Positions 1,986 to 15,758 of a DNA stretch of 19,605 nucleotides are shown here, one piece after another. The position numbers and the translations under genes were made by a program. This DNA comes from Candidatus Eiseniibacteriota bacterium (GTDB taxonomy: Bacteria > Eisenbacteria > RBG-16-71-46). The notes below the pieces were generated by a model. That model worked only from the letters and a program-made list of their open reading frames with translations. It searched no databases and was not told the DNA's origin. Within the stretch, counting starts at the first letter, position 1; each line of letters starts with the position of its first letter. The stretch lies in assembly GCA_031364845.1 (NCBI GenBank), contig JANLWX010000012.1, positions 1-19,605 on the forward strand, written 5' to 3'.

Positions 1986-2025
1986 TCGACACGGCTCACG
2001 AGTTCATCGTATATTGACGATGGAC
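1986..2025 (+). promoter_or_regulatory. Putative arsR promoter with an overlapping palindromic operator
   Basis: TCGACA (1986-1991) and TATATT (2010-2015) as -35/-10. The inverted repeat CATCGT-N6-ACGATG (2005-2022) overlaps the -10, as expected for ArsR/SmtB autorepression. Confidence 0.6.
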
Positions 2026-2040
2026 GATTTGGAGGAGCCA

Positions 2041-2358
2041 ATGAGCACATTGAAAACGCACACGATCGAGACCACCCCGAAGCCACTTTCGGAGATCCAC
2101 CACGAAATCGCGGGCTATGCCAAGGCACTCGGCCATCCCGCGCGCGTCGCCATCCTCCGGCTATTGATCGAGTGCGGCGACTGCATGTGCGGCAACATCG
2201 TCAGCCGAATTCCCCTCGCCCAGGCCACGGTCTCTCAGCACCTCAAGGTGCTGAAGGACGCGGGCCTGATTCGCGGCGAGATCGATCCTCCGCGCGTCTG
2301 CTACTGCGTCAATCCGGAAGCCGTGAAGCAGTTGAAGAAGCTGATTTCGAGTCTGTAA
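2041..2358 (+). CDS. arsR: ArsR/SmtB-family metalloregulator
   Basis: KALGHPARVAIL...CMCGNIV...LAQATVSQHLKVLKDAGLI winged HTH, with Cys clusters CGDCMC and CYC. SD GGAGGAG precedes ATG 2041, and the gene sits directly upstream of arsM. Confidence 0.92.
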   Translation: MSTLKTHTIETTPKPLSEIHHEIAGYAKALGHPARVAILRLLIECGDCMCGNIVSRIPLAQATVSQHLKVLKDAGLIRGEIDPPRVCYCVNPEAVKQLKKLISSL

Positions 2359-2408
2359 TGCACATTGATGCATATCATCAACCGACCCATCCTCAAGGAG
2401 CGACCATC

Positions 2409-3200
2409 ATGATCGATTCGAGCGAAACCAAAGACATCCGCGTGACCGTGCGCGAGAAGTACGGCGCCATCGCCGAGGGCAAAGAGTCCGGATGCTGCGG
2501 ATCCGGGTGCTGCGGCGGCGAGACCGGCGTGCTCGACCAGATCGGCTACAGCGCGGACCAGGCCGAAGCGGTTCCCGAGGGCTCGAACCTCGGACTCGGT
2601 TGCGGCAACCCGCTCGCCTTCGCCGATGCGAAGGCGGGCGAGACCGTCCTCGATCTCGGTTCGGGCGCCGGCATCGACTGCTTCCTCGCGTCCAAGGAAG
2701 TCGGGCCCCAGGGCAAAGTGATCGGCGTCGACATGACCCCGGCGATGCTCGAGCGCGCGCGCGCGAATGCGGCGAAGCACGCGTACACGAACGTCGAGTT
2801 CCGGCTCGGGGAGATCGAGCATCTTCCGGTCGCCGACGCCACCGTGGACCTCGTGATCTCGAACTGCGTCGTCAACCTGTCGCCCAACAAGCCGCAGGCG
2901 TTCCGGGAGGCGTTCCGCGCGCTCAAGCCGGGCGGGCGGCTGCTGGTGAGCGACCTCGTGCTCACCCGCGAGCTCGATCCCGAATTGCAGAAGAACGTCG
3001 ATCTCTACGTGGGCTGTGTCGCCGGCGCCTCGCTCAAGGACGAGTATCTGCGCCACATCCGCGAGGCGGGATTTTCTTCGGTCGAGATCGTGAACGAGAG
3101 CGGCTACGCCGTCGGGATCGAGAACCTGGCCGAAGGCAGCCGCGAGCGCGCGGCGTTCGACGCGGTGGTTTCAGTGAAGGTGCGGGCGTTCAAGCGCTGA
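2409..3200 (+). CDS. arsM: Arsenite S-adenosylmethionine methyltransferase
   Basis: LGLGCGNP, VLDLGSGAGID SAM-binding motif, GVDMT, ISNCVVNL, GCVAGA and N-terminal CC pairs. SD AAGGAG at 2395-2400. Confidence 0.93.
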   Translation: MIDSSETKDIRVTVREKYGAIAEGKESGCCGSGCCGGETGVLDQIGYSADQAEAVPEGSNLGLGCGNPLAFADAKAGETVLDLGSGAGIDCFLASKEVGPQGKVIGVDMTPAMLERARANAAKHAYTNVEFRLGEIEHLPVADATVDLVISNCVVNLSPNKPQAFREAFRALKPGGRLLVSDLVLTRELDPELQKNVDLYVGCVAGASLKDEYLRHIREAGFSSVEIVNESGYAVGIENLAEGSRERAAFDAVVSVKVRAFKR

Positions 3201-5242: not shown

Positions 5243-5271
5243 TTGACTCCTGCCCGGCACGCGCCGATGCT
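5243..5271 (+). promoter_or_regulatory. Putative sigma70 promoter for the leader peptide/metal-uptake operon
   Basis: TTGACT (5243-5248), 17-nt spacer, GATGCT (5266-5271). The predicted TSS falls at about the GTG 5277 start. Confidence 0.5.
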
Positions 5272-5276
5272 TCCCC

Positions 5277-5591
5277 GTGATGCGTCCCGTTTCCCGATCT
5301 TTGACCGGCTTCGACGCCACTCTGCGAAGCCTGCGCGCGCTCATCGTGCTGTTCACGGTGGTCGTGCTCTCGGGCGCGCTGTGGGTGGTGGGAACGCATC
5401 ACCACGCTCCGTCCGGTGCCCACACGTGCGCCGTATGCACGGTCGCGCATGCACCCTCGATCGTCGATGCCTCCGCCACGGGCGTTGCGGCACCGCGCCC
5501 CGTCGCTACCCGCATCATCGAGAACTCCTTCCCCGCTCCCGTGCCGGTTGCATTCGGAATCGCGTCGAGCCGGGCACCACCACAGAGCTAG
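5277..5591 (+). CDS. Small DUF2946/CruR-like leader protein (TM helix, HHH, CxxC, C-terminal RAPP); putative ribosome-arrest peptide
   Basis: Hydrophobic LIVLFTVVVLSGALWVVG, then THHHAPSGAHTCAVCTVAH, a Pro/Ala-rich linker and SRAPPQS-stop. Lies directly upstream of metal-transport genes. Confidence 0.8.
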   Translation: MMRPVSRSLTGFDATLRSLRALIVLFTVVVLSGALWVVGTHHHAPSGAHTCAVCTVAHAPSIVDASATGVAAPRPVATRIIENSFPAPVPVAFGIASSRAPPQS

Positions 5592-5706
5592 CTCCTACGG
5601 ATCCGTGCGCGGAATCGATCCGCGCGCCTTCACGGACCTGAGTTCATGCCCCGCGTGAAATTTTCCCGCGGGGTCGTGGACATTGCAGGAGTGGGCATCC
5701 ATGAAC
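5592..5706 (+). promoter_or_regulatory. Structured intercistronic leader with an anti-SD sequence
   Basis: CTCCT (5592-5596) is complementary to SD AGGAG (5687-5691). Two internal hairpins (5602-5636 and 5649-5673) bring them together, and GTTCAT (5642-5647) can pair with ATGAAC (5701-5706). Confidence 0.6.
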
Positions 5707-6888
5707 ACTTTCTTCTGGTGTCGGGGCGCATCACGCGCCGTCTTCGCAACGGCGGCTCTCGCATGCGCGATCGCATGGGGCGCCGAATGCGCCGGCGCCC
5801 AGCCGGCTTCCGATACCACGGGCACCGCGGAGCCGTTGGCGGTTGCTCCATCGGCATCTTCTGGCGCTGATGCCACGCAGTTTCCGAGCGGAGCGCCGCC
5901 GGCAGGGTCCTCGATCACCAACCCGGCAATCAGCGTGATCGGATGGTTCCAGGCCACGGCCGGTAACGATCCGGGTGCGGCGGAACACGCATTCGAACTG
6001 CACGAGGCCGAACTCGCGTTCCAGGCTGCGGTCGATCCGTTCACACGGGCGGACTTCTTCATGGCTGCGACTCCCGCCGGGCTCGAAGTCGAGGAGGGCT
6101 ATATCACGTGGCTCGCCCTCCCTTTCAACGCGCAGGCAAAGGTCGGAAAGTTTCGCGCGGACCTCGGCAAGTTCAACCGCACGCACGTCCCCGAAACCCC
6201 GTTCGCAGACCGGCCGCTCTCGGCGGCAGCATTCCTCGGCGACGAGGGCCTCGTGACCAGCGGGGTCGCGTTGTCGACGCTCATCTCCAACCCGTTGGGA
6301 CTCTACTGGGATGCCACCGCGAACATCGGCAACCTTCCGGACGCCGATGAGCAACCCGTATTCGAGCGCGCGACACGATCGGACGTACTCGCACTCGGCC
6401 GTACGAGCGTGTTCGTGCCGGCGGGCGCCGCGGCCGACTTCAACTTTGGCGTCTCCTACGCAAATGGTTCGAACCGCGAGGTCGCGCGCGAAAGCGAAGG
6501 CAATCGCGCTCAACTCGCCACGGCCGACGTCACGTTCCGCTGGAAGAACCCGAGGCGCAGCATCTATCGCTCGCTCGTGACTCAGGCAGAGTTCACAGGA
6601 CTTCAGGGCTCACGCGAGGGCGCCGAGCGCTACACCGGAGCGTTCGCGTACGCGCTCTACCAGTTCGCGCGTCAATGGAAGTGCGGCGGCCGCTACGACT
6701 GGACCGAGACTCCGGGCGTGCACGAGAACTCGACCGGAGCACTCGCGTTGCTGCAATACCAGCCGAGCGAATTCAGCACGATGAGCGTGCAGTTGCGCCG
6801 CGTGTGGGAACCCGGCGATCGCTCGCGTGACGCTGCGTTCTTCAAATGGACGTTCAATATCGGACCGCATGGCGCGCATCCCTACTGA
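5701..6888 (+). CDS. Putative outer-membrane beta-barrel associated with metal uptake, His-containing C-terminus
   Basis: Signal peptide, low-complexity linker, NPAISVIG, EAELAFQAAVDPF, VEEGY, GKFRADLGKFN.TH, amphipathic beta-strand pattern and C-terminal FNIGPHGAHPY. SD AGGAG before ATG 5701. Confidence 0.75.
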   Translation: MNTFFWCRGASRAVFATAALACAIAWGAECAGAQPASDTTGTAEPLAVAPSASSGADATQFPSGAPPAGSSITNPAISVIGWFQATAGNDPGAAEHAFELHEAELAFQAAVDPFTRADFFMAATPAGLEVEEGYITWLALPFNAQAKVGKFRADLGKFNRTHVPETPFADRPLSAAAFLGDEGLVTSGVALSTLISNPLGLYWDATANIGNLPDADEQPVFERATRSDVLALGRTSVFVPAGAAADFNFGVSYANGSNREVARESEGNRAQLATADVTFRWKNPRRSIYRSLVTQAEFTGLQGSREGAERYTGAFAYALYQFARQWKCGGRYDWTETPGVHENSTGALALLQYQPSEFSTMSVQLRRVWEPGDRSRDAAFFKWTFNIGPHGAHPY

Positions 6889-6939
6889 TGATCACGCGCG
6901 ATGCAATCGCGCGTTTCTCTTTGGAATAGGAGCCACACG

Positions 6940-7935
6940 ATGATCCCACTCTTCTCTTCAATCTGGTGCGCGTCGCAACTCACGCGGCGCAACGCGACCG
7001 CGGTGCTCCTCGGTTTCACGCTGTCCCTCGGCGCGCTGCCCGCCGGGCACGGCATGCTCGTCAGCCAGGCGCTCGCCGCGGCGAAACCGCTATCGGTCAT
7101 CACCACGACCGAGGATCTCGCGGCCATCGCGCGCGAAGTCGGCGGCGACCGCGTCAAGGTCACGTCGCTCGCGCGCGGATTTCAGGATCCGCACTTCGTT
7201 GACGCCAAGCCTTCGTACATGGTCGCGCTCAAGAACGCGGATCTGTTCGTCGAGGTCGGCCGCGAACTGGAAGTCGGATGGGCGCCCGGGCTGCTGAGTG
7301 GCGCGCGCAATCCGAAGATCCTCCCCGGCGCAACGGGATTCATCGATGCCTCGGCGCAGGTTCAGGTGATCGAAGTCCCGTCATCGGTGAGCCGTTCGCA
7401 GGGGGACGTCCATCCGTACGGCAACCCGCACTACTGGCTCGATCCCGCAAACGGCGCAGGGATTGCTCGCGCGATCCGTGACGGACTGAAGCGCGCATCG
7501 CCCGCCGATGCCGCGGGGTTCGATGCGCGCTGCGTCGACTTCGAGAAGCGCCTGGCCATCGCGGTCGTGCGCTGGAAACAGACAGCGAAATCGATCGGAC
7601 TCGAGGGCATGAAGGTCGTGACCTACCATCGCTCGTGGTCCTACTTCGCGCGCGCGTTCGGGCTCGACGTCGTCGACTTCGTCGAGCCGCGGCCGGGCAT
7701 CTCGCCGTCCCCGAACCATCTGCGCGAACTGGTCGGCCTGATGAAGGCGCAGAACGTGAAGCTGCTGGTGATGGAACCGTTCTTCGACCCGCGCCTGCCG
7801 CAGAAGATCGCAAAGGACACCGGTGCACCGCTGGTGATCGTTCCGACCTCGGTAGGCGCCGAAGAAGGCATCAAGACCTACTTCGACCTGTTCGACCATC
7901 AGCTCGAGCGGATCCGCCGGAGCCTGACGCGGTGA
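6940..7935 (+). CDS. Zn/Mn-type ABC substrate-binding protein (ZnuA/TroA, cluster A-I)
   Basis: QDPHF, GDVHPYGNPHYWLDP, TYHRSWSYF and EPRPGISPS motifs, plus an N-terminal signal region. SD AGGAG at 6928-6932. Confidence 0.92.
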   Translation: MIPLFSSIWCASQLTRRNATAVLLGFTLSLGALPAGHGMLVSQALAAAKPLSVITTTEDLAAIAREVGGDRVKVTSLARGFQDPHFVDAKPSYMVALKNADLFVEVGRELEVGWAPGLLSGARNPKILPGATGFIDASAQVQVIEVPSSVSRSQGDVHPYGNPHYWLDPANGAGIARAIRDGLKRASPADAAGFDARCVDFEKRLAIAVVRWKQTAKSIGLEGMKVVTYHRSWSYFARAFGLDVVDFVEPRPGISPSPNHLRELVGLMKAQNVKLLVMEPFFDPRLPQKIAKDTGAPLVIVPTSVGAEEGIKTYFDLFDHQLERIRRSLTR

Positions 7936-7987: not shown

Positions 7988-8824
7988 ATGATCGAGCAGC
8001 TTCCGTTTCTCATCTGGCCGCTGCTCGGGCTCTTGTGCATAGCCGCGATTCACGTCTACCTCGGACTTCACGTGGTCGAGCGTGGCGTGATCTTCGTGGA
8101 CCTGTCGCTCGCGCAGATGGCGGTGCTGGGTGCCGCGATCGCGTCACTGTGGGGATTCGAGCCGCACGATCCCGCGACGTTCGGCTTCTCGCTGGCGTTC
8201 ACGGTGATCGGGGCGACCGTGTTTTCGATGACGCGCACCGAAAAGTCGCGCGTGCCGCAGGAGGCGATCATCGGCATCGTGTACGCGGTGGCGGCGGCGG
8301 CGACCGTGCTGATCCTCAACAACGCCCCGCATGGGGCCGAGCACATCCGCGACGTGCTGGTCGGCCAGTTGCTCGCGGTCGAAGCGAAGGATGTGCTGCG
8401 GCTTGCGGTGATCTACGCGGTGCTCGGCGCGCTCCACCTGTGGTGGGCGAAGCGCCTGCTGCTGGTCTCGCGCGATCCGGTAGCCGCGAAGGCGCAGGGC
8501 CTGCGCGTCAAGCTGTGGGATTTTCTGTTCTACCTGACGTTCGGATTGACCGTGGCCGTGTCGGTCGAGCTGGGCGGCGTGCTGGTCGTGTTCAGCTACC
8601 TGATCGTTCCGAGCGTGTGCGCGATGCTGCTCGCCGACAGCGTTCGCGCGCGGCTCGTGATCGGCTGGACCATCGCGGCGATCGGGAGTGCCCTCGGAAT
8701 GCTGGTGTCGGTGTGGCTGAGCGCGCCTCCGGGTGCGAGCGTGGTGTGTGCATTCGGTGCGCTGCTGATCGTTACGGCGCTGGTGCGTCCGCGCGTGAGC
8801 GCGGCAACGGCCGGGCCCGCCTGA
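7988..8824 (+). CDS. Metal ABC transporter permease (ABC-3, ZnuB/MntB-like)
   Basis: Multi-TM protein with LGLHVVERGVIFVDLSLAQ, EAIIGIVY, SRDPVAAKAQG and GGVLVVFSYLIVPS. SD GGAGG at 7977-7981. Confidence 0.92.
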   Translation: MIEQLPFLIWPLLGLLCIAAIHVYLGLHVVERGVIFVDLSLAQMAVLGAAIASLWGFEPHDPATFGFSLAFTVIGATVFSMTRTEKSRVPQEAIIGIVYAVAAAATVLILNNAPHGAEHIRDVLVGQLLAVEAKDVLRLAVIYAVLGALHLWWAKRLLLVSRDPVAAKAQGLRVKLWDFLFYLTFGLTVAVSVELGGVLVVFSYLIVPSVCAMLLADSVRARLVIGWTIAAIGSALGMLVSVWLSAPPGASVVCAFGALLIVTALVRPRVSAATAGPA

Positions 8825-8939: not shown

Positions 8940-9725
8940 GTGCGTCGTCTCGACCGCGTTTCGATTGCGAGCCTGGCCGCTCTGGTGATGATGTCGGGTA
9001 CGGCGTCAGGCGCGCCTGTACCTGGCTCGGAGAGCACCAGCTCTCCCGACTCCGCGTCCTACGCCGATCGCATCGCCGAAAACGCGTTCCCGGTCACGCT
9101 CGCCAGTTTCTCGACGACGCTGGCCGGCAGCGTGCCCGGCCGCACGCACAACATCCGTCTTGCATGCCGCGAACTCGACGGAGTCGTGATGGCGCCGGGC
9201 GACGTGCTGTCGTTCAACCGCCGCGTCGGACCGCGCACCGCGGAGCGCGGCTACTGCGATGCGCCGGTGATCCTGCGCGAGAGCCGGCAGCTGCAGCTGG
9301 GTGGGGGCATCTGCCAGGTGGCCTCGACGCTGTTCGTCGCCGGACTGGTGTCCGGGCTCTCGGTCGTCAAGCGCCACCGACACTCGAATCCGGTCGACTA
9401 CATTCCGCTCGGACAGGATGCGACGATCTCGTGGGGCGTGAAAGATCTCCAACTTCGCAACGATCTCGATCAGCCGGTGCGCGTGCACCTCGAAGTGCTG
9501 GGCGCCACACTGACGGCCCGCATCGAGGCGCAGGCGCCGCTGCGAGAGAGCTACGAGTTGTACTCCGACGTGCGCGAATCCGACGATGCGCTTGCGGGCA
9601 CACCGGGCCGCGAGATCGAGCTCTATCGCATCCGCCGCGTCGACGGCGAAGAGCGCGACCGCGAGTTGGTGCATCGCGACGTGTTCCCGATCGCGCGAGT
9701 GCGCGAGCTCGAGGCCGGGCGATGA
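8940..9725 (+). CDS. VanW-domain exported protein
   Basis: Signal peptide, RTHNIRLA, PGDVLSFNRRVGPRTAERGY, GGGICQVASTLF, RHRHS and GQDATIS; short G5-like tail. Confidence 0.9.
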   Translation: MRRLDRVSIASLAALVMMSGTASGAPVPGSESTSSPDSASYADRIAENAFPVTLASFSTTLAGSVPGRTHNIRLACRELDGVVMAPGDVLSFNRRVGPRTAERGYCDAPVILRESRQLQLGGGICQVASTLFVAGLVSGLSVVKRHRHSNPVDYIPLGQDATISWGVKDLQLRNDLDQPVRVHLEVLGATLTARIEAQAPLRESYELYSDVRESDDALAGTPGREIELYRIRRVDGEERDRELVHRDVFPIARVRELEAGR

Positions 9726-10408
9726 GGCAGGCGTTCGTTGCCGGCGTCGCGGCCGTGTTCCTCGCGTGCATGACGTCCGCGCGCGTGCCGGCCGCGATCG
9801 ACGATCCGCTCGAAGCGTTCCGCGCGTTCGCGCGCACGCCCGCGGCGCAGGAGCTGATCGCCGAGGCGCGCGCGGCGATGACCGCGCACTTCGAGGGCGG
9901 CGACGATGGCACGATGGCGGGCGGGCAGACGAGCGACGAATCGATCCCGTGGCCCGCCGCACCCGCTGCCGTCTACGTGAGCCTCGCGAACGGCCGTGCC
10001 ACGCGCGCCTGCGTCGGCAGCGCCGCACCCGGTGGAACGCTGCGGGCCACGGTGCGCGATCTCGCCGTGCAGGTGCTCCATTCGGATCGTCGCCGCCTGC
10101 CGGTGCGCCGCGAGGAACTCGACGGCCTGCGTGTGGTGGTGTCGCTCGCCGGCCCGGGAACGCCGGTCGCCGATCCGATGTCGGTCGCACTCGCGCGCGA
10201 AGGCCTGCTGGTGCGCAGCCCGCTCGGCAGCGTGGCGTTCCTGCCGGGCGAAGCACGCACGGTGACGTATGCGCTGCGCGAGGCGCGCCGCATCGGCGTG
10301 CTCGCGGATGCGCGCGATGCGACGTTCGAGCGATTCGACGTGATCGCGATTTCCGAGCCCTCACCGCGCCGCGAGCGTGCGATGCCGCGCGCGCATGACG
10401 AACCCTGA
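9722..10408 (+). CDS. AMMECR1-domain protein with an N-terminal signal peptide
   Basis: AVYVSL...TRACVGS (compare canonical FVTL...LRGCIG), DRRRLPVRREEL..LRVVVS and EGLLV...FLPGE. ATGA overlap with the vanW stop. Confidence 0.72.
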   Translation: MRQAFVAGVAAVFLACMTSARVPAAIDDPLEAFRAFARTPAAQELIAEARAAMTAHFEGGDDGTMAGGQTSDESIPWPAAPAAVYVSLANGRATRACVGSAAPGGTLRATVRDLAVQVLHSDRRRLPVRREELDGLRVVVSLAGPGTPVADPMSVALAREGLLVRSPLGSVAFLPGEARTVTYALREARRIGVLADARDATFERFDVIAISEPSPRRERAMPRAHDEP

Positions 10409-10454
10409 TTCCCTTGCGAACGTCCGCATGAACCCCTGAGCCCTGGAGCCCCCG

Positions 10455-13400
10455 ATGCCGCAGTCCCGAATCGAGCGATGCCGGTCCCCACATTTCACCG
10501 CCTTCGCGCGCACGCTGCTCCTCGCGTGGGCCGTGCTGGTGGTTCCGTTCGCGTGGTCCGCCCACGCCGAGACCAGCCGCATGAGCGGCCGGGTGATCGA
10601 CTCCGATTCGCAGAAGCCGGTCGCCAACGCCGACGTCGAACTGGCGAATACGTCGGGCGGCCAGGGATTCCATCGTGCGCGCACCAATGCGCGCGGTGAA
10701 TTCGCGATCGAAGGCATCTCATCCGACCGCTACTACACGCTCACCGTCGGTGCGGTGGGCTTCGCCGACTTCGTAATCGGAGGCTGGCAGATTCCGGCCG
10801 CACAGCGCGCGGCGGAGCTCGTGGTCCCGCTCGATCGCGCAGGCGTGCTGGTGGTGCGCGCGCTGCGCACCGACGGCAAGACGCCGGTCGCCAACGCGCG
10901 GGTTCAGTTGCAGAGCGAGCGCGGCTCGACGTGGTGGGAAGGCTACCGCCCGCCGCCCGCGCCGCGCTACACCGACAACGGCGGCTCGGTGCGCTTCGAA
11001 GGTCTGACGGCCGGATTCTGGACCGCGGTCGTCGAAGGCGACGGCCTGCGCACCGCCGAAGCGCGCCGCATCGCGGTGCGCCGCGGCGAGACGACACAGG
11101 CGCCGGTCAAACTCGGAAAGCCGGGATCATTGTCGGGGCTCGTGCGGCTCGCCGACGGCACCGGCGTGCCGGGCGTGACGATCACCGCGCGCGGACCTTC
11201 GGAGCAGGTCGCCACCAGCGGCACCGACGGCACGTTCGCGCTGAGCGATCTCGCGGCCGGAAAGATCCGCATCGAAACGAGTCACGAAGGCTTCGAGCCG
11301 TTCACCGTGCGCGAGCCGGTCGTCGTGCGCGAAGGCGAAGCGCGAGAGATCGCGGCGATCACGCTCAAGCCCAAGCCCGCGGAGTTCGCGTTCGTGCTCG
11401 AGCGCGAGGCGTTCCTGCCGGATGTGGTGCCGAAGCTCGGCCTGCGTTCGTTCCGCACCGGGCCGATCGATCTTGCGCTGTACGTGATTCCGACGTCCGT
11501 GATTCTCAATCCCGCCGGCGACTTCCGCCGCTACGCGTTCACGAACGACTCTACCGGGCTCGTATCGCCCGAGCGCTGGCAGCACGCGCCCGCGGCGGGG
11601 CCGGAGTGGTCGTGGCGCGAAGAGGAGTTGTCGCTGCCGCACGCGCTGCCGCCGGGTGCTTATCTCCTCAAGGGCCGCGCGGGCGCGATCGAGCGGCGCG
11701 TGATCTTCTTCGTCACCGACATGGGATTGCTGGTCAAGCGCTCGGCAACGCAGGTGTGGGTTTCCGCGGCGGCGCTCAAAGGCGGCAAGCCGGTTCCCGG
11801 TGCGAGCGTGTACGTGATCCAAAAGCCGGTGCCGCCCGCGGGCGAAGGCCAGGGCTGGAGCACCGCGATCGCGGAGCCGCGCCGCGATGCCGTGCGCACC
11901 GATGCCGACGGCATCGCGAGCATCACGGATACCGGCAAGGGCGCGCGCCTGCGGATCGTCGCGGTGAGTGAGACGCAGGGACTCGCGGTGGTCGACGCGC
12001 CGATCGCGCCCGCGGCCGAACGGGGCGGAGATCAGAGCTACCTCTACACCGATCGGCCGATCTATCGACCGGGACACGCGCTCCACTGGAAGCTGTTCGC
12101 GCGCAAGGCGACCGCTGCGGGCGGCTGGGCGCTGCCCGATGCCACGGCCGCGACCGTGGTGCTCGAAGCACCCGACGGCACGACGCTCGGCGGTGACGCC
12201 ACACCGCTGTCCGCGCGCGGCTCGTCCGATGGAACGATCACACTGCCCGCCGAGGCGGCGCTCGGCGACTGGACGCTGCGCGCCAGCATCGGCGGTTCGA
12301 CGACGACCGCGACCGTCGCCGTGCAGGACTATCGCAAGCCCGAATTCCAGGTCGAGGTCACCCCGGATCGCGCGGTGTACGTGAACGGCGACGAGGTGCG
12401 CTTCCGGATCGCGGCATCGTATTTCTTCGGCGCTCCGGTGTTCGGGGCCACCGTGCGCTACAACCTGTTCGAAGCGCGCATCGACGCCGCCGGCGACGAT
12501 CCGGACTCTGAGTTCTCGGAAGGCGGCGCGCGCGGATACGGCCGCGTGCTCAAGACCGGGGAGACCCGCACCGATCTCGACGGCCGCGCCGAAGTCTCGC
12601 TGGTGCCGGAACGTGTGCCTTACGACCGCCGCCTCACGCTCGAAGTCGAAGTCGTCGATCCCTCGCAGCGCGTGGTGAACGCGCGCGGTGAAGCGATCAT
12701 GGGCCGCGGACTGTTCACGCTCGCGGTGCATCCGGTCACTGCGGTGGTGGCGATCGGAAGGCCGATGTCGATCGAAGTGACCGCGCGCGATCACGCCGAT
12801 CGCCCGGTGGTGGCCGCGGTGACGGTCGAGATCGATCAGGAGGCGTGGAACCCGCTCGAGCGCCGCTACACGCGCTCGACCCGTCCGCTCGCCTCGCAGG
12901 TCGTCACCACCGACTCGCTCGGCCGCGGCCGCGTGACGCTGACGCCGTCACCGGCGCGTGGCGGGCGGTTGATCCTGCGCGCGCGCGCCGAAGACGCCAA
13001 GGGCAACCGCATCACCGCCGAGTCGTCGGCGTGGGCGCACGATCCGTCGGTGACTTCGTATGCCTATCGCTATCCCGCGCTCGAAGCGTTCGCCGACAAG
13101 GCGCGCTACCGCACCGGCGACACGGCGCGCGTGCTGGTGAACACCGACGTCCGCAACGCGACGGTGCTCGTCACCGTCGAAGGGCGCGATTTGTTCGACC
13201 GGCGCGTGGTGCGCCTGATCGGCAACAGCGCACTGGTCCCTATTCCGATCCGTGCCGAGTGGGCGCCCAATGTGTTCGTGGCGATCCACGTGCGCCGCGG
13301 CATGGAAGTGCACTCACGCACGATCGAGCTTCCGGTCGATGCGATGCGCCACGATCTCAAGATCGAACTCACGCCCGATCGCGAACGCGCGCGGCCCGGC

Positions 13401-15758
13401 GATTCGACGACCGTGCGCGTGCGCACCACCGACGGAAACGGACGGCCGGTCGCGGCCGAAGTGTCGCTCGGGGTGGTCGACGAAGCGATCTACTCCATCC
13501 GCGCCGACGACACGCCCGATCCGCATTCGGTGTTCTACGGCCGCCGCCCGAACTGGGTGACGACGGTGGTCTCGTTTCCGGTGCTCTACTACGGCGGCGT
13601 GAGCAAGGGCGATCGCGATGAAGTGCGCCGCAACTTCCGCGACGTCGCGCACTGGGAACCCGCGATTCTCACGAGTGCCGCGGGGACCGCGAGTGTGGGA
13701 TTTCGCTATCCCGATAACCTCACGACGTGGCGCATGACGAGCCGCGGCGCGACGCTCGACACGCGCGTCGGCAAGGCGGTCGTGAAGACGCTGGTGACCA
13801 AGGACGTCGTCTCGCGCCTCGCGGGCCCGCGGTTCTTCGTCGCAGGCGATCGCGCGAGCCTCGTGTCGGTGGTGACCAACCGCAGCGAAGGGCCGCTCAC
13901 CGGTGTCGAGGAGTCGATCGAAGTCACGGGTGCAGTACTCGAAGGTCCGACGACCGCGAAGACGCAGATCGCAAAACAGGGCGAGTCGCGCAACGAGTGG
14001 CAGGTGCGGATTCCCGAGCCGGCGCGCGATGCGGAGTCGAAGGACGCGGTGTTCACGTTCCGAGCGCGCGCCAAAGCGGATTCGGACGCGCTCGAAGTGC
14101 GCGTGCCGGTGCGGGCGCGTGCCGTGCCGTTGCTCTCGCACGGAGCCGGCGTCGCGCCCGGAGCCAGCTCGACGCTCAACGTTTCGCTTCCTGGCGATCT
14201 CGTGCGCGCCGGCAGCCGGGTGACGATCGACATCGCGCCCTCACCCGCCGCGGTCGCGCTCACGGCCGTGCAGGAGCTGCTCGATTATCCCTACGGCTGC
14301 ACGGAGCAGACGGCGAACGCAATCCTTCCGGCCGCCGCCATGGCTTCGGCGCTGCGGAAGGCTTCGGTCACAGCGCCCGGCTTCGAGAACCCGTCCGCCA
14401 GAATCGCGGCGCATCTTCAGCGGCTCGCCGCCCTGCACAAACCCGACGGCGGATGGGGCTGGTGGCCGGAAGGCGACATGGACCCGTATCTCACCGTGCT
14501 CGCGATCGACGCGATCGCGCGCGCGACGCTCGCCGGCATCGCTCCCGAAGGCACCGACGGTGCGATCGACCCGGCGGTCTACGTGCTGCCGCGCGTGTTC
14601 GCCGAGGTGCGCACGCTCGACGGCGAGGCGTACGTGATCGCGCACCTCGCTTCGATGACGAAGCTCAAGAACGCGAAGGATCGTTTTCCCGGTGTGCGCG
14701 AGCGGCTCGACGAGATGGCGCTCGCGGTGCGCTCGGCGCCCGACCAACTCGGCAACGCCGGGCTGGCACTCGCGACGCGCGCGCATGCCGAACTCGGCAT
14801 GACGGCCGAAGCCGCGATCCTCGCCGACAAGCTGATCGCGCGCGGCGTGAAGAGCGGCGGACTCCATTGGGAAGCCGATCGCGAAGCGTACGATTGGTGG
14901 GGCGACGACATTTCGAACACCGGCCTGGCGCTGGACGCGCTGCTCGCCGTGCGCCCCGACGACCGGCGCGCAACCGAGATCGTGCAGTGGCTGGTGCGCC
15001 ACCGCACCGGTCCCTGGTGGCGCTCGACGCGCGTGTCGGCGCCGGTCGCGGCGGCACTCGCGAACTTCGCGGGTGCGCACGCGTCCGAGATGAAGGCGCA
15101 GGGCCAGGTGCGCGCGGAGTGGAACGGCGCGCGCGTGATCGACGCGACGATCGGCGCCGCCGAGATCTTCGGCCGACCGCTGCGCGCGACCGTCGACGGC
15201 GCGCGACTGCGCGCGGGCGACAACCGGCTCGTGATCACGACCGACGGCGGCATCACCGCCTACTGGTCATGGAACGCGCGCGCGCTGGTGCCGAGCCCGG
15301 GGCCGGTTCAGAAGCCGGGAGTGCTGGCGGTGACGCGCGAGTATCTGCGCGCCGAACGCACGACCGACCGCCGCGGTCGCCCGCGCTGGCTCACGACGCC
15401 GCTCACGCCGACCGACGCGGTGCGCGTCGGTGAAGCGGTGCTGGTGCGGCTCACGCTGCGCGCGACGCGCACCCTGCGGCACCTGATGCTCGAGGATCCG
15501 CGGCTTGCGGGCTTCGAGATCGATCAACTGCTGCCGGACGGCGCTGAGTGGCCCTACGGCACGCACGCCGAAGGCCGCGACGATCGCGCGGTGTTCTTCC
15601 TCGAGAATCTCGCGGAAGGCGAGACGACGGTCGAGTATCTGATCCGCCCCGAGATCGGCGGCCGCTTCATAGCACTTCCCGCGACCGCGAGCGGCATGTA
15701 CGACCCGGACCTGCTCACGCGCAGCGGCGAAGAGCAGCTCACAGTCAAAGGCAGATAG
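10455..15758 (+). CDS. Bacterial alpha-2-macroglobulin with N-terminal carboxypeptidase-regulatory-like repeats
   Basis: YTDRPIYRPG (MG2), YRKPEF, VDEAIY, RRNFRDVAHW, PDNLTTW, thioester YPYGCTEQ (Cys codon 14298-14300), DGGWGWW and C-terminal PATASGMYDP. Confidence 0.95.
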   Translation: MPQSRIERCRSPHFTAFARTLLLAWAVLVVPFAWSAHAETSRMSGRVIDSDSQKPVANADVELANTSGGQGFHRARTNARGEFAIEGISSDRYYTLTVGAVGFADFVIGGWQIPAAQRAAELVVPLDRAGVLVVRALRTDGKTPVANARVQLQSERGSTWWEGYRPPPAPRYTDNGGSVRFEGLTAGFWTAVVEGDGLRTAEARRIAVRRGETTQAPVKLGKPGSLSGLVRLADGTGVPGVTITARGPSEQVATSGTDGTFALSDLAAGKIRIETSHEGFEPFTVREPVVVREGEAREIAAITLKPKPAEFAFVLEREAFLPDVVPKLGLRSFRTGPIDLALYVIPTSVILNPAGDFRRYAFTNDSTGLVSPERWQHAPAAGPEWSWREEELSLPHALPPGAYLLKGRAGAIERRVIFFVTDMGLLVKRSATQVWVSAAALKGGKPVPGASVYVIQKPVPPAGEGQGWSTAIAEPRRDAVRTDADGIASITDTGKGARLRIVAVSETQGLAVVDAPIAPAAERGGDQSYLYTDRPIYRPGHALHWKLFARKATAAGGWALPDATAATVVLEAPDGTTLGGDATPLSARGSSDGTITLPAEAALGDWTLRASIGGSTTTATVAVQDYRKPEFQVEVTPDRAVYVNGDEVRFRIAASYFFGAPVFGATVRYNLFEARIDAAGDDPDSEFSEGGARGYGRVLKTGETRTDLDGRAEVSLVPERVPYDRRLTLEVEVVDPSQRVVNARGEAIMGRGLFTLAVHPVTAVVAIGRPMSIEVTARDHADRPVVAAVTVEIDQEAWNPLERRYTRSTRPLASQVVTTDSLGRGRVTLTPSPARGGRLILRARAEDAKGNRITAESSAWAHDPSVTSYAYRYPALEAFADKARYRTGDTARVLVNTDVRNATVLVTVEGRDLFDRRVVRLIGNSALVPIPIRAEWAPNVFVAIHVRRGMEVHSRTIELPVDAMRHDLKIELTPDRERARPGDSTTVRVRTTDGNGRPVAAEVSLGVVDEAIYSIRADDTPDPHSVFYGRRPNWVTTVVSFPVLYYGGVSKGDRDEVRRNFRDVAHWEPAILTSAAGTASVGFRYPDNLTTWRMTSRGATLDTRVGKAVVKTLVTKDVVSRLAGPRFFVAGDRASLVSVVTNRSEGPLTGVEESIEVTGAVLEGPTTAKTQIAKQGESRNEWQVRIPEPARDAESKDAVFTFRARAKADSDALEVRVPVRARAVPLLSHGAGVAPGASSTLNVSLPGDLVRAGSRVTIDIAPSPAAVALTAVQELLDYPYGCTEQTANAILPAAAMASALRKASVTAPGFENPSARIAAHLQRLAALHKPDGGWGWWPEGDMDPYLTVLAIDAIARATLAGIAPEGTDGAIDPAVYVLPRVFAEVRTLDGEAYVIAHLASMTKLKNAKDRFPGVRERLDEMALAVRSAPDQLGNAGLALATRAHAELGMTAEAAILADKLIARGVKSGGLHWEADREAYDWWGDDISNTGLALDALLAVRPDDRRATEIVQWLVRHRTGPWWRSTRVSAPVAAALANFAGAHASEMKAQGQVRAEWNGARVIDATIGAAEIFGRPLRATVDGARLRAGDNRLVITTDGGITAYWSWNARALVPSPGPVQKPGVLAVTREYLRAERTTDRRGRPRWLTTPLTPTDAVRVGEAVLVRLTLRATRTLRHLMLEDPRLAGFEIDQLLPDGAEWPYGTHAEGRDDRAVFFLENLAEGETTVEYLIRPEIGGRFIALPATASGMYDPDLLTRSGEEQLTVKGR

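Follow-up and report, generated by a model that had tools for sequence, protein, structure and literature searches.

Within the window, the 19,605-nucleotide stretch of Candidatus Eiseniibacteriota DNA analyzed here, a short leader open reading frame (ORF) (5277..5591, plus strand) is flanked by a divergent enoyl-CoA hydratase gene on one side and by a three-gene operon on the other. The operon lies on the same strand as the leader. Its first gene (5701..6888) encodes an outer membrane porin, which AlphaFold2 modeled as a 16-strand barrel without a TonB plug (pLDDT 82.9) and for which the best Foldseek matches were porins. Family models gave weak matches to BBP2/Porin_O_P and none to OprB, protein searches returned no informative name, and the nearest named homologues come from Candidatus Eisenbacteria. 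The second gene (6901..7935) encodes a cluster A-I (ZnuA-family) solute-binding protein (Pfam ZnuA, E = 2e-55; best NCBIfam match AztC, under the cut-off of that model). The third (7988..8824) was assigned by Pfam and NCBIfam as an ABC-3 (ZnuB/AztB-like) permease. These results agree with the initial annotation, in which the target was a porin with a cluster A-I binding protein and a permease. Conserved histidines of the porin are His162, His390, and His393, two of which are in the C-terminal tail. This tail, G-x-H-x-x-H-x-[YF], follows the last strand and, together with His162, may bind metal within the pore, although the tail was modeled with low confidence. Conserved segments of the permease include PQEAxIG and WDFLFY. 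After the permease, VanW-like, AMMECR1-like, and 1767-aa alpha-2-macroglobulin genes follow on the same strand (8940-15758), outside the conserved operon as far as seen. At 1993-3200, the window also carries an ArsR-family regulator and then a methyltransferase resembling arsenite methyltransferase (named by eye).

The leader has 104 codons when read from the GTG at 5277 or 103 from the ATG at 5280. Translation gave a basic N terminus, a hydrophobic helix (5337..5390, about residues 21-38; signal anchor or signal peptide), His41-43, His49, Cys51/Cys54, His58, an Ala/Pro-rich linker, RAPP at residues 99-102 (5571..5582), and Gln-Ser before the stop. Thus, the 104-residue ORF with a membrane segment, HHH, CxxC, and a RAPP two residues from its end was read correctly at the outset, and 44 residues separate Cys54 from Arg99. 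The basic N-flank of the helix predicts an N-in/C-out orientation by the positive-inside rule. The HHH (41-43) and the H-x-C-x-x-C-x-x-x-H (49-58) make up a putative metal site (5397..5450), as judged by conservation of its Cys and His columns. The AlphaFold2 model of the leader consists of a helix at 9-39 (ATG numbering), a short helix, and an unstructured 45-residue tail; at a pTM of 0.45, it does not give the ligand geometry. By analogy with the CruR toeprint (PMC12992588), the predicted stall has the P site occupied by Pro101 (5577-5579) and the A site by Pro102 (5580-5582).

Across the whole genome, an R[AG]PP terminus occurs in 103 of 39,322 stop-to-stop frames of at least 60 aa, and six frames ending in this way carry a CxxC 38-56 residues upstream. 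By eye, only the leader at 5277 is plausible; the other five look spurious and are mostly Arg-rich. The motif combination of the leader is not due to chance, and a leader profile found a single copy in the genome. The best Pfam match of the leader is PF11162 (DUF2946), at 18.9 bits (E = 0.0027, profile positions 53-117), without reaching the gathering cut-off of 23.7. CruR (Bp2923) of Bordetella pertussis is the prototype of this family (PMC9426467). Like a CruR-type upstream ORF (uORF), the leader has a CxxC, a RAPP plus two residues before the stop, and 44 residues between the two motifs, where 45 (plus or minus 1 to 2) are required. It also has an N-terminal export signal or N-in/C-out helix, for which cleavage was not predicted. 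It is the first gene of a metal homeostasis operon with a long gap, having a divergent gene upstream and 109 nt between itself and the porin-ZnuA-permease genes. CruR-type uORFs precede copper-linked genes; in contrast, the operon here holds ZnuA and ABC-3 families and no copper family. Judged by these sequence features, the 104-aa product (103 aa from the ATG) is a CruR/CutF (DUF2946)-like predicted arrest peptide, though one under the Pfam cut-off. A DUF2946/CruR-like RAPP leader had been proposed for this ORF, and that proposal is upheld by the Pfam match and by PF11162 matches at E of 0.1 or less in 41 of 98 leader homologues, the best at 3.3e-5.

These homologues were collected with the porin gene as bait, so that detection was independent of leader sequence. 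Of 61 relatives, 49 gave a porin match; a profile search of the 153-genome phylum sample gave matches in 127, a few of which were weak. Leaders upstream of the porins were found by motif search with no HMM, allowing a Cys-to-Arg window of 36-55. A leader was present at 98 of 104 assessable distinct homologous porin loci, and six had none within 650 nt; the genomes are kin, so these loci do not count as independent events. Left out of the counts were two duplicate leader records (100 reduced to 98) and locus L123, which has no porin match, and nine porin loci were not assessable (six at contig edges and three partial porins). Conservation of the uORF upstream of homologues of the 5701 gene, as initially proposed, is thus borne out. 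The leader-bearing records are titled Eisenbacteria, Elusimicrobiota, Acidobacteriota, Zixibacteria, Ignavibacteria, Planctomycetota, and Fibrobacteria. One of the six leaderless loci has a leader one gene further upstream; the other five are from Elusimicrobiota and have another gene ending just upstream. These five (L069, L087, L093, L097, and L115) are natural controls for what replaces the leader.

Some loci vary in layout. A gene for a His-rich predicted beta-propeller lipoprotein lies ahead of the porin in L049:1106-2323, L161:2491-3717, L173, and L174:1393-2625, and in three of these it is between leader and porin. We take this inserted gene to be reminiscent of AztD, but it gave no family match and could not be assigned to AztD. 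Among L044:6851-7267, L045 (two operon copies), L051, and L132, we saw divergent second leader-like frames, an operon duplication split by foreign DNA, and truncated copies of the porin lying between the leader and the porin itself.

The terminal motif of the 98 leaders is RAPP in 74, RGPP in 13, RSPP in 9, HGPP in 1, and RPPP in 1, and it is followed by a two-residue tail in 76. Its second position is therefore mostly A, G, or S, the residues that support arrest in mutagenesis (PMC12992588). The distance from the last Cys to the Arg is 44 residues in 65 of 98 leaders and 43-45 in 86 (standard deviation [SD_res], 1.2), while that from the helix end to the Arg ranges from 56 to 92 (SD_res, 7.8). 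This implies that the spacing ruler is set from the metal site and not from the membrane helix. An exact CxxC is found in 90 of 98 leaders, and 91 have at least two His before it. In the 98-row alignment, both Cys columns are invariant, in part by selection of rows, and two His columns are at least 90% conserved. Mean column identity is as low as 16%, so selection maintains the position, motifs, and spacing of the leader rather than its sequence at large. A hydrophobic window of at least 1.8 was present in 97 of 100 leader records, and the N-flank was more positive than the C-flank in all 100. Over ten homologue pairs (960 codons), changes at codon positions 1, 2, and 3 numbered 185, 140, and 270, a coding-type pattern. 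Searching a 50%-identity library with a 27-row leader profile returned 2,149 clusters at E of 0.001 or less.

It is hardly credible that the ORF is non-functional or encodes a small free metal-binding protein with no regulatory role. The terminal RxPP, the spacing, and the first-gene position are kept at such low identity, the predicted fold ends in a long unstructured tail, and RAPP is avoided in ordinary proteins (PMC12992588). It is very doubtful, if less so, that the leader monitors secretion or periplasmic disulfide formation, with the CxxC as a redox switch rather than a metal site. RAPP leaders do monitor Sec/YidC and precede DsbA/thioredoxin genes (PMC12992588), and CutF has been modeled with disulfides. 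However, His residues are conserved beside the leader Cys, the spacing is fixed from the CxxC and not from the helix, and every real leader target inspected is a metal-type uptake gene or a TonB receptor. We hold with high confidence that this is a functional arrest leader and, with somewhat less, that it responds to metal.

Upstream of the leader is a sigma-70-like promoter (5243..5271, plus strand), with a -35 of TTGACT (5243-5248), a 17-nt spacer, and a -10 of GATGCT (5266-5271). The gap from the -10 to the start codon is 5 nt for the GTG or 8 nt for the ATG, and the leader has no Shine-Dalgarno (SD) sequence. Because the promoter adjoins the start and there is no SD, the leader mRNA is probably leaderless or nearly so. 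A similar promoter pattern was found upstream of 54 of 97 leaders, compared to a mean of 6.6 in shuffles, and often within 14 nt of the start; a good SD was seen at only 12 of 97. With a stricter promoter scanner, the leader promoter fell under threshold (0 sites). No shared operator was found in the 97 upstream regions, seven of which have an AT-rich palindrome, and there was no common motif.

The RNA around the leader end is rich in C. A C>G-skewed stretch (5440..5667, plus strand) is a candidate Rho utilization (rut) region by composition, and the genome has a rho gene. The excess of C over G extends from about 90 nt upstream to about 60 nt downstream of the leader Arg codon, and this bubble spanning the end of the leader agrees in composition with the rut signature of CruR. 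In the 35 noncoding nt after the leader stop, C exceeds G at 94 of 98 loci (mean skew, 0.29), compared to 50% of 167 control genes (0.015), and in the window these 35 nt are weakly skewed (0.08). Synonymous third-position C skew is 0.21 in the leader and 0.05 in the porin. The 109-nt intergenic region (5592..5700) contains two GC-rich hairpins (about 5605-5627 and 5642-5681, with no U-tail) and the porin SD, AGGAG (5687-5691). No intrinsic terminator was called in this gap, and Rfam gave no riboswitch or RNA family in the window. The C-rich stretch around the leader stop favors a CruR-style Rho termination, as far as composition can indicate.

The same C-richness could equally serve anti-SD pairing. 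The output would then be translational, as in SecM or CutF, with the stalled ribosome freeing the porin SD from a C-rich anti-SD at the Pro-Pro codons and stop. Several comparisons among the homologues point this way. The first Pro codon is CCT, making CCUCC, in 45 of 98 leaders, compared to 158 of 2152 porin Pro codons. Blocking the stall footprint lowered the energy of opening the ribosome-binding site (RBS) by at least 2 kcal/mol at 42 of 98 loci, compared to 10 of 98 for an upstream block. Cognate stall-site/RBS duplexes had a mean of -18.3 kcal/mol, compared to -16.5 kcal/mol when permuted (n = 96), and some homologues form long stall-site/RBS helices. The window has a CTCCT after the leader stop. 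Against this, cognate pairs were also slightly favored in a control region (P = 0.03), meaning that part of the duplex signal stems from base composition, and synonymous recoding of the stall site showed no excess (53/96). In the window, SD occlusion is not supported: the stalled footprint raised the porin RBS opening energy from 10.1 to 14.5 kcal/mol, no footprint position opened the porin SD, and the cognate duplex had a z of -0.1. We consider a translational output rather improbable. Since the window forms no long stall-site/RBS helix and the recoding control is flat, we prefer Rho termination, which on balance is the likelier main output here.

We observed directly the anatomy of the leader, its conservation, and its constant distance from Cys to RAPP, as well as the C-rich RNA and the type of operon; the steps that follow are modeled on CruR. 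A constitutive promoter would give a leaderless mRNA. The ribosome would stall with Pro101 in the P site, placing the His/CxxC segment 47-60 residues from the peptidyl-transferase center, just outside the tunnel and at or beyond SecY. The stalled ribosome would mask the C-rich rut region, Rho could not load, and the operon would be transcribed. When metal is plentiful, its binding would fold the His/CxxC segment, pull the chain, and free the stall. The ribosome would then terminate two codons on, and Rho would end transcription in the 109-nt spacer. We think it likely, to a moderate degree, that the leader is a cis-acting arrest peptide of this kind, with the operon on while the ribosome is stalled at RAPP and off when metal, probably zinc, is bound. 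CruR and CutF respond in opposite directions; therefore, the sign of the response is taken from the importer nature of the operon. The initial annotation placed sensing at the outer side of the translocon; in our judgment, periplasmic sensing is about as probable as cytoplasmic. CruR, which has the same spacing, does not need its signal peptide, and in the model of its authors sensing is cytoplasmic (PMC9426467), whereas CutF needs export (bioRxiv 10.1101/2022.11.11.516240; 10.1101/2025.02.05.636593).

CruR is the closest system to which we can compare the leader. It requires its CxxC, its RAPP, and their spacing (45), and a 5-residue insertion strongly cuts the copper response (PMC9426467). 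In vitro, the ribosome arrested on CruR has the P and A sites filled by the two Pro codons; RAPP/RGPP arrest is seen in many contexts, and that of ApdA/ApdP resists EF-P (PMC12992588). Shared with CruR are the place as first gene of a metal import operon, an export signal, a CxxC about 45 residues before a C-terminal RAPP, a long GC-rich intergenic region, and the C>G bubble. The leader differs in being 103 aa rather than 145, in being His-rich around the CxxC and under the Pfam cut-off, in coming from a different phylum, and in probably sensing zinc. It precedes genes for a plug-less porin, a ZnuA-type protein, and an ABC-3 permease, whereas the target of CruR is a TonB receptor with PepSY. 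CutF of Rhodobacter capsulatus is likewise an exported nascent-chain metal sensor that acts in cis, with a Cys motif and a C-terminal proline motif (bioRxiv 10.1101/2022.11.11.516240; 10.1101/2025.02.05.636593). As described in the same preprints, however, CutF has CxxxC and an EF-P-dependent PPP rather than RAPP, and its copper-induced stall opens a hairpin that hides the SD of a detoxifying oxidase gene; the leader described here precedes an importer, and the window gave no support for SD opening. ApdA, ApdP, and SecM also have a RAPP-type core near the C terminus after a localization signal, but they monitor Sec/YidC and have no metal site (PMC12992588).

With regard to the metal, the binding protein has His98, His177, and His243 at the canonical ligand positions and no Mn-type Glu/Asp pair. 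Mn-type PsaA/MntC use Glu and Asp at these positions (PMC3851752). The three His are kept in 101, 101, and 100 of 101 binding protein homologues. All 101 also have His171 (GDVHP), located six residues N-terminal to the second canonical ligand and possibly an extra or entry ligand. The binding protein has no His-rich loop, which is typical of Gram-negative zinc-binding proteins (PMC9820375). The same leader type precedes TonB receptors instead of a porin at seven further loci. Five of these receptors scored 118-241 bits to ZnuD, compared to 67-94 to a copper receptor model, with all ZnuD scores far under the model cut-off of 950 and a heme receptor model scoring higher for two of the five; the other two of the seven gave no ZnuD match. 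The occurrence of this leader type before ZnuD-like receptors makes zinc the likeliest signal. Taken together, the binding protein ligands and the ZnuD-like alternative targets favor zinc over Mn, Fe, and Cu as far as sequence can tell, and we regard zinc as the probable, though not assured, main metal sensed by the leader. Mn uptake seems to be covered separately: the genome has four DtxR-domain matches, one of them adjoining an MntH-like gene.

Copper, nickel, or cobalt as the sensed and imported metal is unlikely, if somewhat more credible than a translational output. For copper, CxxC is the proven copper site of CruR, where zinc had only a moderate effect (PMC9426467). HupE/UreJ Ni/Co genes are preceded by His-only CutF-like leaders (bioRxiv 2022.11.11.516240), and a binding protein with no His-rich loop and a fourth invariant His, His171, makes Ni/Co conceivable. 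Against these metals, cluster A-I binding proteins carry Zn, Mn, or Fe (PMC9820375), for five of the seven leader-linked receptors the ZnuD score exceeds that of the copper receptor model, and no copper chaperone or oxidase gene is in the operon of the window.

The operon also lacks an ATPase gene, and none was seen at 20 wide loci. Five ATPase-like frames were found in 96 loci, all outside the operon, and some loci end at the permease. The best match in the genome to a ZnuC-type ATPase reached 99.8 bits (cut-off, 306), so a canonical ZnuABC system was not recovered.

The initial annotation suggested that the leader could replace a Zur/Fur repressor. Locally, this stands, as no Fur-family gene was found in the 97%-complete genome. 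Generally, it does not: in relatives positive for the Fur family as a whole, 12 of 14 assessable porin loci have a leader, these loci having been chosen mostly because an HMM had missed the leader. "Replaces Zur" is thus only partly supported, a strict anti-correlation of leader and Fur is rejected, and the leader is a general feature of the operon rather than a compensation for the loss of Zur. In two samples of same-family genomes, a Fur-family gene turned up in only 4 of 36 and 23 of 60. Fur-family protein went undetected in 67 of 153 genomes of the phylum. We also rejected locus L013 as a case of a Fur gene instead of a leader; a leader ending in HGPP is present, and the divergent Fur-family gene is PerR-like, with L172 being similar. 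The PerR-like genes divergent from the leader are at L013:3381-3863 and L172:2639-3022; after the latter come frames that, by eye, resemble peroxiredoxin and Dps.

Leaders with this class of mechanism have been published, and the existence of non-copper members, for Ni/Co, had been foreseen. RAPP uORFs have been tabulated before "carbohydrate porin" genes (54 RAPP versus 5 AAPP) and DUF2796 genes (137 versus 2), and many of the porin-linked ones have the same signal-His-CxxC-RAPP layout at about 100 aa (PMC12992588). However, the text and files of that source that were searched contain no zinc, ZnuA, or Eisenbacteria, and its "carbohydrate porin" genes are candidate homologues of the 5701 gene. 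The DUF2796 protein of the table is presumably the zinc protein ZrgA. In the literature covered, including parts of the supplements of PMC12992588 and PMC9973294, neither a zinc-type RAPP leader nor this porin-ZnuA-permease operon was described. We tentatively propose that ribosome arrest, not a Zur repressor, is the only zinc import control in a lineage often without the Fur family. As part of the same tentative proposal, the operon would be an undescribed importer made of a His-lined porin, a four-His ZnuA-type protein, and a permease with no dedicated ATPase.

In the literature reviewed, metal sensing by an arresting nascent chain has been shown experimentally for copper only (CruR and CutF), and according to the CruR paper, no zinc riboswitch has been described (PMC9426467). 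The 98 natural variants, with a fixed 44-residue ruler and variable His, are a test series for release force and for zinc versus copper selectivity. If true, a zinc-responsive leader would extend posttranscriptional metal sensing to zinc and would explain how zinc uptake is controlled in genomes without Fur/Zur.
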